Positions 33,000-39,245 of a DNA stretch of 39,245 bases are shown here, one piece after another. Positions within the stretch are counted from its first letter, which is position 1, and the number at the start of each line of letters is the position of its first letter. The DNA comes from a virus. Its lineage: Duplodnaviria > Heunggongvirae > Uroviricota > Caudoviricetes. A model generated the notes under the pieces. The model ran no database searches. It was not told where the DNA came from and saw only the letters and a program-made list of their open reading frames with translations. The position numbers were made by a program, and so were the translations under genes. The stretch is taken from IMG/VR virus record IMGVR_UViG_2558860161_000002; one strand, 5' to 3'.

Positions 33000-33215
33000 T
33001 TAATCAGTAATGATGACATTTGCTGCTGCAGGACCTTTAGCACCACTCTCTATAGAGAAGGTAACCTTTTGACCTTCAAATAAGGTTCGATAATTATCAT
33101 TCTGAATCGCAGAAAAATGCACAAACACATCTTTACTACCATCAACAGGAGAAATAAAGCCGAAACCTTTATCAGCGTTAAACCATTTTACTAAACCAGT
33201 CATTTTATTTGACAT
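33000..33215 (-). CDS. cspB: cold-shock protein (CspA family), 71 aa
   Basis: [74 protein letters not shown]. Confidence 0.9.
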
Positions 33216-33515
33216 TCTACATTCCTTAACTTGAGCCTTTCGGCATAAATGGTTTGCATAACAGAAACGACTTCGTACTTAATTGGAGAGACTCAAAGAA
33301 GGAATAAGTGAATAACACCTGAAATGAGAACTGCTTTAGTAAACTACTTCGTATATCGTCTGTTCTTCAAACCGACGCAATCATTAACGCATAGTTGAAC
33401 ATATGAAGCAATGTTTATTTTAGACATCCAGCCATCTTCAACCCCATCAAAAAACTATAGCTTTCTTCAGGAACGTGTGTATAGTGCGCCAAGTTATCAG
33501 TATTAAGGAATTTTT

Positions 33516-34020: not shown

Positions 34021-34044
34021 AAAACCCGCTCATCAGCGGGTTTT
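34021..34044 (-). terminator. tR'-like terminator about 40 nt downstream of the putative late promoter
   Basis: aaaacccgct-catc-agcgggtttt hairpin; read on the minus strand it follows the pR'-like promoter. Confidence 0.5.
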
Positions 34045-34089: not shown

Positions 34090-34118
34090 ATTTTATCCAT
34101 ATTTTTTGAAAAATGCAA
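34090..34118 (-). promoter_or_regulatory. pR'-like sigma-70 late promoter immediately downstream of Q (expected site of Q action)
   Basis: minus-strand TTGCAT (-35; plus 34113..34118), 17-nt spacer, TAAAAT (-10; plus 34090..34095). Confidence 0.6.
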
Positions 34119-34149
34119 ACATCATGTCGCCATCTTCAGCAAAAATCAT

Positions 34150-34902
34150 TTATCTCGTCACCTTCCTCAATTGCGCTTCCGCGTATGCTTCTTCCTGCCA
34201 GCACTTTGTTACCAGTTTACCAATGACGTCCGCATACCCCTTATACCACTGATAATCGGTCAGGTCTGGTACCAGCTTCTGGACATGACGTCGTGCCAGC
34301 GTGGTCGGTAAACGACTAAACCGGTTTCCATTACAACGCCCACAAATCTTATATACCGGTACGCCATGAAACCGGGTTCTTTTTTCATCCAGAACAATCC
34401 CTTTACCCTTACACCCTCTGCACGCTGTGCTGGCTTCGCCCTTACCATGGCAATGCTGACATAGTTCCTTCACCCATTCTTCCTTGATTACAGATTCCCC
34501 GCGTCTGTAGTGTTTCACCACTTCGCGCAATACATTATAAAATCCCGTACCTGAACAATGCTCACAGCGAGCCTTACTTGCCGCAGACCTGGAGTAATCA
34601 GCAAAGGCAAAACTCACGAGGTAAGGAATAATCTGTAACCGGATTTCTTCACTCAATTTGTTCAATGTCGGGTTATCCAGTGCCATCGCGTAATTTAGCA
34701 GGCCTTCAATCGCAAACTGAGGGTCCTGAACACCAACTTTTGCCAGAAATAAGGCCAACCCAAGTGGTGCTTTCGACTGCACCATCCCCTGCGCTGCCAT
34801 TACATCCGTAATTGTTAAACAACCGGTGCCTGTCGCTGGAGCGTCATCGCTCAATTTTGGAGATTTTGGGGAGTAATATTTTGGTAAGGCTTCAAGGTTC
34901 AT
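34150..34902 (-). CDS. quuQ: late-gene antitermination protein Q (lambdoid Q family with Cys-rich zinc-binding motifs), 250 aa from MNLEALPKYY
   Basis: ORF with CxxC...CxxC clusters (CEHCSGTG, CQHCHGKG, CRGCKGKG, CGRCNG); directly upstream of the pR'-like promoter. Confidence 0.8.
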   Translation of the reverse strand: MNLEALPKYYSPKSPKLSDDAPATGTGCLTITDVMAAQGMVQSKAPLGLALFLAKVGVQDPQFAIEGLLNYAMALDNPTLNKLSEEIRLQIIPYLVSFAFADYSRSAASKARCEHCSGTGFYNVLREVVKHYRRGESVIKEEWVKELCQHCHGKGEASTACRGCKGKGIVLDEKRTRFHGVPVYKICGRCNGNRFSRLPTTLARRHVQKLVPDLTDYQWYKGYADVIGKLVTKCWQEEAYAEAQLRKVTR

Positions 34903-34915
34903 GCTCGTTCTCCAC

Positions 34916-36004
34916 TTACGCCAGTACGCCAATTGCCAGCGCGCGATCGATAAAACGAAATATCAGCTCCAGTTGGGAGCCATACTTATCTTCAAATGCC
35001 ACTGTATCCGTATGCAGCTCGTTGTGATGCTTTCTGCACAAAGGCAACACAAAGAGATCATGTGCTTTTGTTCCCATTCCGCCCTGCCCGTGACCAATCA
35101 GATGATGCGGATCGTCGGCTGGCATACCGCAGCAAGCACACGGCTGTGTCTTAACCCAACGTGTGTATTTCTCCTTAACCCAGCGGCGACGTTTAGGCAG
35201 CTTCATGAAAGATTCCGGAGACTCTGGATCAACGGTGATGCTTACCACCGTCTTTTCCTGTGGTGATTTTTGTTGCTGGTGGGCGTAAGGCAACGGTGCA
35301 AGATTTTTTGTGCGTTGTTTCAATATGCTGGTGGCGGTCTGCTCTCCCGGTACGATGTCGCTTTCGCGGTACACCGAGCAGATTTTTTCCGCTGGTAATC
35401 CCAGCGAACGACGCGATACAGCCTCAGGTAGTGCATCCACCACCTGATTGCAGACCGCCCACCAGGATAATTCAGCCAAAGATAATTCCCGCTCCTGCGT
35501 ACCGCTTATTGCGTGACGGATGACGTCAATCACCCATGCTGTCAGATTTTGTTGAGCAAGCAGCTCCAGTGATTCCGATGTCTGGTCACGCAGTTGGTTG
35601 TCGCAGTGCCAGCACAACACCATTGCGCCGGTACCATAACGGTGAATGACTGTTTCAGTGTGATGGTAATCGCCATTAGGCCACTGGCAGGATGTAACAT
35701 GACGTAATAGCCAGTCGGACAATGCGCCAACGCCGCCAGCAGCACGAATCACCCGTTCGTTACTAAAAAACGGCAGCAATGTTTTGTCTTCCGCCAGCGG
35801 CTGGCGAACGGCAGGAACGACTCCGGATGGCAGATTACGCATGCTTTTTGGTTCCGGTTCCACCAGCACTCGAGGATTATGAAATATCTGTATGGATTCA
35901 CGGCCCGGCTTAAGGACCACCAGCCCAAGCTCAGGCACCAGAACAGGTCTAAGTAATACCCGCACGTTACCTCCAGATCCGTTGCTGGAAAGTGCGGGAC
36001 GCAC
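34916..36004 (-). CDS. ydfU: YdfU-like (DUF968) protein with a C-terminal HNH-like Cys/His motif; start uncertain
   Basis: ORF containing ...QPCACCGMPADDPHHLIGHGQGGMGTKAHDLFVLPLCRKHHNELH... Confidence 0.6.
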   Translation of the reverse strand: MRPALSSNGSGGNVRVLLRPVLVPELGLVVLKPGRESIQIFHNPRVLVEPEPKSMRNLPSGVVPAVRQPLAEDKTLLPFFSNERVIRAAGGVGALSDWLLRHVTSCQWPNGDYHHTETVIHRYGTGAMVLCWHCDNQLRDQTSESLELLAQQNLTAWVIDVIRHAISGTQERELSLAELSWWAVCNQVVDALPEAVSRRSLGLPAEKICSVYRESDIVPGEQTATSILKQRTKNLAPLPYAHQQQKSPQEKTVVSITVDPESPESFMKLPKRRRWVKEKYTRWVKTQPCACCGMPADDPHHLIGHGQGGMGTKAHDLFVLPLCRKHHNELHTDTVAFEDKYGSQLELIFRFIDRALAIGVLA

Positions 36005-36245
36005 GTGGTGGGCGTTCGGAATAAGGCAGCCTGACAGAGATTATCCAGTGCCGATAGTCGAGACTGAGAGCTTTCTTAACCTCGAACCCGCGCCTGCGGT
36101 AAGAATGAATCAGCCATTCGGCCTGTTCTGCAGTGCATGGAGGGTGCTGGAACCATTCAGACTTGAATGCGTGAGAATACCGCCCGTGCGTGCAGGCAAG
36201 AACGGGCGAATTATCAGAATTGTAATATTTTGCGTTGCGTGCCAT
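35967..36245 (-). CDS. hypothetical protein, 92 aa
   Basis: ORF MARNAKYYNSDNSPVLACTHGRYSHAFKSEWFQHPPC...; 3' end overlaps the longest ydfU frame. Confidence 0.35.
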   Translation of the reverse strand: MARNAKYYNSDNSPVLACTHGRYSHAFKSEWFQHPPCTAEQAEWLIHSYRRRGFEVKKALSLDYRHWIISVRLPYSERPPRASRTFQQRIWR

Positions 36246-36311
36246 CGGTTTTCTCCGGTGGCACGGTGTTACTCAGCGGGAGTTCAGCCCCGCGCAAGAT
36301 TGTAGATGAGT

Positions 36312-36563
36312 TTATTCTCCTGAAAAAGCAGAAAAGCCAGCTTTTATTCCGATCTCTTTCAATGCCTGTAATGAAGTGACAAACTCACCTTCGCGCAAGA
36401 TAAATCCGTCCGTGACCCGAGCATCCACAAAATTAATTAACGCAGCCCCATTCTTTCGCAAACACATAATGCGGTAATGACTAACAAGATTTCCATTTTC
36501 AACGCACACAGCATAGAGGCCATCTTCACAAAAAATTTTACGCAGTTCTTCGATGTTCATCAT
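36312..36563 (-). CDS. hypothetical protein, 83 aa (length and position match the Qin rem gene as recalled)
   Basis: ORF MMNIEELRKIFCEDGLYAVCVENGNLVSHYRIMCLRKNGAALINF... Confidence 0.4.
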   Translation of the reverse strand: MMNIEELRKIFCEDGLYAVCVENGNLVSHYRIMCLRKNGAALINFVDARVTDGFILREGEFVTSLQALKEIGIKAGFSAFSGE

Positions 36564-36689
36564 CAGAATCCTTCCGGATAATTAGCTCTCCCCTTTAAGG
36601 GACCATCCCTCTTATCCCTGCGCGCTACTTAAGTATTTTTGATTCTATTCCGGCACCGTCCAGAACTTCAAACGCGTTGAAAATAAAAA

Positions 36690-36712
36690 CAAAAACCCGC
36701 CGAAGCGGGTTA
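36690..36712 (-). terminator. rho-independent terminator downstream of hokD (end of the relB-relE-hokD unit)
   Basis: aacccgc-cgaa-gcgggtt hairpin followed on the minus strand by tttgtttttatttt. Confidence 0.7.

Positions 36713-38938: not shown

Positions 38939-39245
<307 letters not shown>

Follow-up and report, generated by a model that had tools for sequence, protein, structure and literature searches.

What is encoded in the short interval that separates the toxin genes of a lambdoid prophage from its Q antiterminator gene, and does it include a nuclease? The question is raised by positions 34,916 to 36,563 of a stretch of 39,245 nucleotides (IMG/VR virus record IMGVR_UViG_2558860161_000002, Caudoviricetes; the whole stretch is called the window below). 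The interval lies in the Qin cryptic prophage, and positions 34100-36700 were 100% identical to Escherichia coli K-12 strains (C600, J53, and others). An initial annotation, made from the letters alone, had listed three open reading frames (ORFs) here. Their coordinates, lengths and motifs were confirmed, and all of them were on the minus strand, as follows.

36312..36563, minus strand: rem (b1561), 83 amino acids; from ORF and annotation
35967..36245, minus strand: orf92 (WP_012304870), 92 amino acids; from ORF and a coding sequence of the Prokaryotic Genome Annotation Pipeline (PGAP)
34916..35965, minus strand: ydfU (b1560), 349 amino acids plus stop; DUF968 / His-Me finger protein

The order of genes on this strand is relB, relE, hokD, rem, orf92, ydfU and quuQ, and the annotation of C600 and J53 likewise gives ydfU, a "hypothetical protein" (WP_012304870) and rem. 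We regard the interval as the equivalent of the "nin-region" in the lambdoid prophage Qin, with three co-directional early-right genes between hokD/relBE and quuQ. The explanation that we favor, with moderate confidence, combines this identity with YdfU as a two-module zinc nuclease and with orf92 as a gene translated in tandem with it. The locus is a known and annotated part of E. coli K-12, and what we add is modest: the N-terminal zinc module of YdfU, a clade of relatives of P1 PdcB predicted to be catalytically dead, the position of orf92, and the link between rem and hok.

The Two Modules of YdfU

The initial annotation had read ydfU as a frame of 362 codons from GTG 36004. This frame exists; however, the true start is GTG 35965, which gives 349 amino acids, matches RefSeq and is the position at which all homologues begin with MR.LL. 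A Shine-Dalgarno sequence (GGAGG) lies 4 nucleotides upstream of this codon, inside the end of orf92. YdfU matched the full model (1-171) of the Pfam family DUF968 (PF06147, His-Me finger clan) with E=1.5e-76, at 256.6 bits where the gathering score is 27.8, and over its full length it belonged to phrog_96 ("HNH endonuclease"); weak Pfam matches to HNHc_6 and RecA_dep_nuc were both under their cut-offs. An alignment of 76 sequences of the YdfU family was the basis of the profile and of all column counts given below. In the AlphaFold model (mean predicted local distance difference test, pLDDT, 78.8), an N-terminal domain, a disordered linker and a C-terminal beta-beta-alpha unit were distinguished.

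35381..35965, minus strand: N-terminal domain, residues 1-195; from AlphaFold and column counts
35201..35380, minus strand: linker, residues 196-255; predicted disordered, pLDDT 33-57, with segment 222-248 below 50
34919..35200, minus strand: C-terminal HNH / His-Me finger domain, residues 256-349; from AlphaFold, profiles and column counts

The length of the linker differs among homologues. The Cys/His cluster that had been called reminiscent of HNH nucleases falls in the third segment: its motifs, CACCGMPADDPHH and CRKHHNELH, correspond to residues 276-288 and 310-318 (349-amino-acid numbering), and in the model two strands (285-288 and 306-309) precede a helix (311-319), where pLDDT is about 90. 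C276, C279 and C310 were each present in 76/76 sequences, and position 313 (H313 in YdfU) was C or H in all of them. These four residues are predicted to form a structural zinc site of the zinc-finger subclass (CxxC...Cxx[C/H]). The candidates for catalysis, namely H287 and H288 of a DPHH motif together with H314, N315 and H318, were kept in Qin YdfU and in 63/76 homologues.

The YdfU family profile found YbcO (3g27_A, E=0.013) in the PDB, and the HNH domain of McrA was also matched. By hhalign, the C-terminal 98 residues aligned with the YbcO alignment at a probability of 90.6% (E=1.3e-6). When the YdfU model was compared with the PDB by Foldseek, the top matches were the HNH domains of IscB, Cap5, Gme and ScoMcrA (E about 1), and in BFVD short DUF968 proteins superposed on it over about 90 residues with a root-mean-square deviation of 1.1-1.8 Å and E values down to 1e-6. 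The matches in both databases were confined to the HNH part. Plain sequence searches of the PDB with the YdfU, Rem and Orf92 proteins gave only chance matches (peptide N-glycanase, RNase LE/T2, ribosomal eS1). The assignment of the YdfU C-terminus to a YbcO-type HNH (His-Me finger) domain with an intact motif is well supported by these profiles and by the predicted structure. It is not new, having already been published: "Qin prophage YdfU" was placed with YbcO in His-Me finger group 7, which comprises DUF968 and DUF1364/YbcO (Jablonska et al. 2017, PMC5714182), and the HNH motif of DUF968 had been noted earlier (Curtis et al. 2014, PMC4118853). The HNH-like reading of the initial annotation is therefore backed by profiles, structure prediction and the literature, and the three proteins of the interval were not assigned to well-characterized non-nuclease families. 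A literature search for biochemical data on YdfU, YbcO or PdcB found none.

YbcO of prophage DLP12 (PF07102/DUF1364, PDB 3G27) is the closest comparison, with a homologous HNH core and a gene that likewise precedes rusA and Q in lambdoid phages. It consists of 96 amino acids and of the HNH domain only, whereas YdfU adds the predicted N-terminal zinc domain of 195 residues and the disordered linker. The lambda protein NinG/Rap (PF05766), a branch-specific recombination endonuclease, is also of HNH type and occupies the same slot, after a coupled small gene and before Q. Nevertheless, apart from the motif we found no relationship between YdfU and NinG/Rap: hhalign gave a probability of 6% across 8 columns, and Pfam NinG was not matched.

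The N-terminal Cys/His module is the part of YdfU that was not previously described. The domain is specific to the family; it gave no Pfam, PDB or BFVD match in profile and whole-chain fold searches, and nothing was obtained when it was compared with NinG and YbcO by hhalign. AlphaFold predicted it with a pLDDT of about 90 at residues 60-190, as a mainly helical domain with one hairpin (strands 105-110 and 113-118) followed by a helix at 119-125. The conserved Cys/His ligands flank this predicted hairpin and helix: C93 was found in 76/76 sequences, H or C at position 101 in 76/76, C118 in 75/76, and C or H at position 121 in 75/76. Moreover, Q94, N140 and E165 were invariant (76/76). The motif C118-W-H-C121-D122-N123-x-x-R126 parallels C310-R-K-H313-H314-N315-x-x-H318 of the HNH half. 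Because the pattern C-x2-[C/H]-[D/H]-[N/D]-x2-[R/H] recurs in both halves of YdfU, the N-terminal domain is a possible cryptic duplicate of the HNH finger, and the ligands and the model suggest a second, remodelled treble-clef finger that lacks the conserved general-base histidine. The correspondence is one of motif and secondary structure only and has no statistical support, as hhalign found no significant similarity between the N-terminal domain and YdfU's own C-terminal domain.

An alternative origin of this domain can be derived from the literature, in which DUF968 was described as the fusion of an Orf-like domain with an HNH motif and lambda Orf/NinB was proposed for the N-terminus of Gram-positive DUF968 proteins (Curtis et al. 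2014, PMC4118853). In relatives of the Qin locus, NinB-like DUF1367 genes are located two genes upstream of the nuclease. The hhalign probability between the YdfU N-terminal domain and lambda NinB/DUF1367 was 0.1-0.2%, obtained with narrow alignments of limited sensitivity. The NinB fold (1PC6) was absent from the Foldseek matches in the PDB, and a NinB match in BFVD had a probability of 0.04, both in a whole-chain search that is likewise of limited sensitivity.

The two domains also differ in divergence. Between Qin and phage PPompW the nonsynonymous substitution rate (dN) was 0.049 for the N-terminal domain versus 0.35 for the C-terminal domain, and the ratio of nonsynonymous to synonymous rates (dN/dS) of the former was 0.10. 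These values suggest that the two domains were exchanged separately at the disordered linker.

The Gene Slot before Q

It had been supposed that this position in lambdoid phages holds recombination or nuclease functions, and the relatives agree, since NinG/Rap, YbcO and RusA are all found there. In phages 640R1, PPompW and YeP3, a full-length YdfU homologue is immediately followed by RusA and/or Q, and the complete order in PPompW is hok, rem, orf92, ydfU, rusA and Q. Matches to YdfU were also obtained by tblastn in SfV and mEp390. The same slot is occupied by NinG or YbcO in Gifsy-2, mEp237, phiES15 and GF-2. The gene that precedes the slot in Qin is orf92, and its junction with ydfU is very tight.

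35963..35974, minus strand: coupling junction GGAGG-TAA-C-GTG, with the orf92 stop at 35967-35969 and the ydfU GTG at 35963-35965

A single nucleotide separates the two genes, and the ydfU Shine-Dalgarno sequence lies in the last codons of orf92, so the pair has the classic arrangement by which translation would be coupled. Other genes of the orf92 family form similarly close junctions (from a 4-nucleotide overlap to a 2-nucleotide gap) with NinG or YbcO genes. To describe how general this arrangement is, 196 loci with a member of the orf92 family were counted. They were collected by pattern searches and are close relatives, so the counts are descriptive and not independent. The gene next to the small gene was distributed as follows.

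NinG/Rap next: 80 loci; small gene of 65-66 amino acids in all but two
YdfU next: 79 loci; small gene of 92 amino acids in all 79
YbcO-type next: 24 loci; small gene of 66 amino acids
Other gene, or no ORF called: 13 loci; small gene of 65-68 amino acids in all but two

NinG, YbcO or YdfU followed the small gene directly in 183/196 loci; among the exceptions are NinX, a Dcm methylase and PY54 ORF48. The gene on the 5' side was almost always DUF1367 for the 66-amino-acid form and Rem for the 92-amino-acid form. RusA was present in none of 76 NinG loci, in 18 of 20 YbcO loci and in 17 of 74 YdfU loci. NinG and RusA thus look mutually exclusive, while YbcO and YdfU look to travel with RusA. Considering that NinG loci are without RusA while YbcO and YdfU loci can carry it, YdfU is not simply a substitute for Rap.

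In two contigs the small proteins were 97% identical, and the next gene was NinG in one and YbcO-like in the other. Which small gene is present is thus not tied to the family of the nuclease, and a mosaic joint sits exactly at the boundary of the two genes. The notion that orf92 is a partner specific to one nuclease is weakened by the same pair.

Knowledge of what the pre-Q nuclease slot does would clarify how lambdoid phages process recombination and replication intermediates, and would explain why Rap stands alone in some phages whereas in others YbcO or YdfU is accompanied by RusA. Enterobacterial prophages, among them Shiga-toxin phages, very commonly encode DUF968 and YbcO proteins, and both YdfU and Rem belong to the E. 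coli K-12 "y-ome", the genes without known function.

Some E. coli genomes contain read-through fusions of YdfU with the Q antiterminator (607 amino acids), and one fusion of YdfU with RusA (447 amino acids) was seen. Where the genes adjoin so tightly, a point mutation or a deletion is the probable origin of such fusions, which may account for some of the reported architectures in which DUF968 is fused to RusA.

A Proposed Role for YdfU

YdfU would be a zinc protein of two modules, with an N-terminal domain of about 195 residues, a linker of about 60 residues and a YbcO-type HNH domain of about 90 residues. We propose that it acts as a divalent-metal-dependent DNA endonuclease, which would be made early in lytic growth and would act on recombination or replication intermediates of the phage; in intact relatives it would work next to the RusA resolvase. 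Binding of the substrate would be the task of the N-terminal domain. The product of orf92 would be a small alpha/beta accessory protein, translated in tandem with YdfU and with a role that does not depend on which nuclease follows; that this role lies in accessory DNA metabolism is a guess.

Several observations weigh against this proposal. First of all, catalysis is not a property of the whole family. P1 PdcB (P1_gp107) is a full-length YdfU homologue (26% identity over 91% of YdfU), and the clade to which it belongs (13/76 sequences) has lost H287, H288, H314, H318 and the Gly-rich loop, while both Cys/His sites and the invariant residues of the N-terminal domain are kept. According to the literature, pdcB is dispensable to P1 and has no known function. 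In addition, no single fold match to a solved structure is significant, Qin itself is a decayed prophage without RusA, and the near-identical small proteins before different nuclease families speak against a nuclease-specific partnership of orf92.

The PdcB clade also leads to another possibility, that YdfU serves mainly in DNA binding or regulation rather than in catalysis, with its conserved function in the N-terminal zinc domain and the HNH domain accessory or vestigial. The better conservation of the N-terminal domain in the comparison with PPompW is in line with this idea, as are its residues without exception in the alignment (C93, Q94, N140 and E165) and the existence of a stand-alone family of the N-terminal domain (phrog_11007). 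On the other hand, all catalytic residues are intact in 63/76 sequences, Qin YdfU included, which argues for selection for catalysis, and the N-terminal domain matches no known DNA-binding fold. We consider a mainly non-catalytic YdfU rather unlikely. A broader scenario appears similarly doubtful: the YdfU family would be defined by its N-terminal domain as an undescribed zinc module for nucleic-acid processing, maybe a remodelled HNH duplicate, with the HNH domain as an exchangeable accessory that would have been lost in the P1 PdcB clade and reshuffled at the disordered linker, and the orf92 family may mark a fixed recombination joint before three nuclease families.

We think it improbable that YdfU is a defence or exclusion nuclease of the prophage or a RecA-dependent nuclease like P1 Ref (PF16786), even though HNH effectors are common in defence systems and Cap5 and McrA were among the fold matches. 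YdfU and Ref share the zinc-HNH core (E=0.0042, residues 281-329 in 362-amino-acid numbering), but the match reached 17.6 bits against a cut-off of 26.9, with no similarity outside this core, and P1 encodes Ref separately from PdcB. The gene lies beside toxin-antitoxin loci in both Qin and P1; in the latter, pdcB comes after the toxin-antitoxin locus phd-doc and after pdcA, a small gene unrelated to orf92. In functional phages, however, it is located in the early lytic operon beside RusA and Q and not in a moron or defence island, and no PADLOC family was matched. An early lytic endonuclease remains our preferred reading of YdfU.

The Small Genes orf92 and rem

The initial annotation could assign no family to the ORFs of 92 and 83 amino acids, and the same was found here: neither protein matched a Pfam or NCBIfam family, and their only families were PHROGs of "unknown function", phrog_1212 for the core of Orf92 (residues 27-92, 1.7e-35) and phrog_340 for Rem (4.4e-21). 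A GGAG sequence lies 7 nucleotides before the ATG of orf92. The AlphaFold model of Orf92 comprises a beta-alpha-beta-beta core at residues 29-74 (pLDDT about 85), a less confident C-terminal helix, and a disordered segment at residues 1-26. Homologues of 65-68 amino acids with 38-48% identity were found in Gifsy-1/2, mEp237, phiES15, PY54, GF-2, and Hafnia and Erwinia phages. The 92-amino-acid form with its N-terminal extension occurred, in these searches, in Escherichia and Shigella only. Comparison of the model with the PDB by Foldseek returned only generic beta-alpha-beta-beta folds (PII, ACT, S6), and the profile gave nothing consistent against PDB and Pfam.

Several candidate relatives of Orf92 were rejected. 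A spacing of residues (E-W-x2-H-x2-C) resembling CAS-II of RNase T2 was not conserved in the family. The upstream genes of P1 (PdcA) and of Edwardsiella (LexA-like) were unrelated to it, and so were NinH and Rem by hhalign. Lambda NinF, whose small gene lies directly upstream of ninG and overlaps it, is a positional analogue of Orf92 without sequence similarity to it (hhalign); in the record of Erwinia phage vB_EhrS_59, a gene annotated as NinF occurs in addition to an orf92-like one.

Rem is a narrow Escherichia/Shigella family. When 1.84 billion representatives were searched exhaustively with HMMER, 43 matches resulted, mostly fragments, with only four distinct relatives at 46-77% identity. 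Matches in proteins of 980-3023 amino acids, with multiple stretches in each, were short and repeat-looking, and the match of Rem to NCBIfam SocB was dismissed as noise (14.9 bits vs a cut-off of 210). The gene rem follows hok in three contexts, namely Qin, PPompW and a Rac-like element (MN652886). The last of these has the order hok, a rem homologue (59% identity), DUF1367 ("IrsA"), ybcO and Q and lacks any gene like orf92. Since rem follows hok there without orf92, it is linked to hok and not to orf92.

This arrangement bears on the proposal that Rem and Orf92 form a pair of antitoxin and toxin, which would belong with the addiction loci hokD and relBE rather than with ydfU. SEED-style phage records indeed label the orf92 homologue "toxin to Rem" and Rem "Antitoxin Rem". 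The two genes are small, adjacent and co-oriented, they lie beside two real toxin-antitoxin loci, and Rem is located upstream of orf92 in 76/79 close relatives. Nevertheless, most of the orf92 family occurs without Rem: the 66-amino-acid forms have DUF1367 upstream, and in 640R1 hok is followed directly by orf92. Conversely, Rem occurs without orf92 in the Rac-like locus. The gap between rem and orf92 is 66 nucleotides versus the single nucleotide between orf92 and ydfU, neither protein matched a family of toxins or antitoxins in Pfam, NCBIfam or PADLOC, and a literature search found no paper on a Rem/Orf92 pair. A toxin-antitoxin function of the two therefore appears highly improbable.

The substitution pattern indicates that all three ORFs are real genes under purifying selection. 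For the orf92 core (codons 27-92), dN/dS was about 0.09, with a range of 0.07-0.12 in comparisons with relatives that had 20-29 nucleotide differences, of which 13-20 were on third codon positions; its first 26 codons are relaxed (dN/dS of 0.6 vs phage 640R1). Compared with phage PPompW, dN/dS was 0.14 for rem and 0.19 for ydfU. Although orf92 is not annotated in MG1655 (NC_000913.3), whose curated record leaves a gap between ydfU (b1560) and rem (b1561), one phage record calls an antisense ORF instead, and neither small ORF has a Pfam family, the view that they are chance reading frames of a decaying prophage has next to no probability and is ruled out by these substitutions, together with the orf92 homologues across Enterobacterales phages and the interruption of the antisense ORF. 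PGAP calls orf92 in other K-12 strains. The antisense ORF, annotated in the record of phage PhiR42_1 in place of orf92, has 137 amino acids (window 35892-36305, plus strand). It contains 2-4 stop codons in homologues, and substitutions concentrate on its first codon position. These stops and first-position changes point to a non-coding frame, and the call is likely a mis-annotation. In practical terms, a conserved gene of 92 codons missing from the MG1655 annotation and a mis-annotated antisense ORF have been flagged.

Whether these genes are expressed in K-12 is another matter. The terminator upstream of ydfU has been listed with the strongest of the Rho-dependent terminators of E. coli, which the authors of that list considered essential to suppress toxic prophage genes (PMC9160355). 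Considering this terminator and the decay of Qin, rem, orf92 and ydfU may be silent in K-12. The surrounding features of the window are as follows.

34150..34902, minus strand: quuQ/ydfT, the Q antiterminator gene directly downstream of ydfU; from Pfam Antiterm (4.2e-54) and annotation
36711-36694, minus strand: terminator-like hairpin after hokD, followed by a promoter-like site at 36671-36642 ahead of rem; from a consensus scan

The hairpin and promoter-like site between hokD and rem are matches to consensus sequences and as such only putative signals. A scan with Rfam found zero RNA families within the interval. Just 3' of quuQ, a promoter-like site at 34119-34090 (minus strand) and a strong palindromic hairpin at 34021-34044 were observed, and this layout resembles the lambda region pR'-tR', where Q acts. 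Farther along, the cspA thermoregulator (Rfam RF01766, 157.7 bits) was found in the cspB leader, at 33000-33376 (minus strand). The right end of the window belongs to the ydfX region, and there positions 39086-39244 (minus strand) encode the C-terminal piece of a DDE transposase (PF01609, E=2.5e-5).

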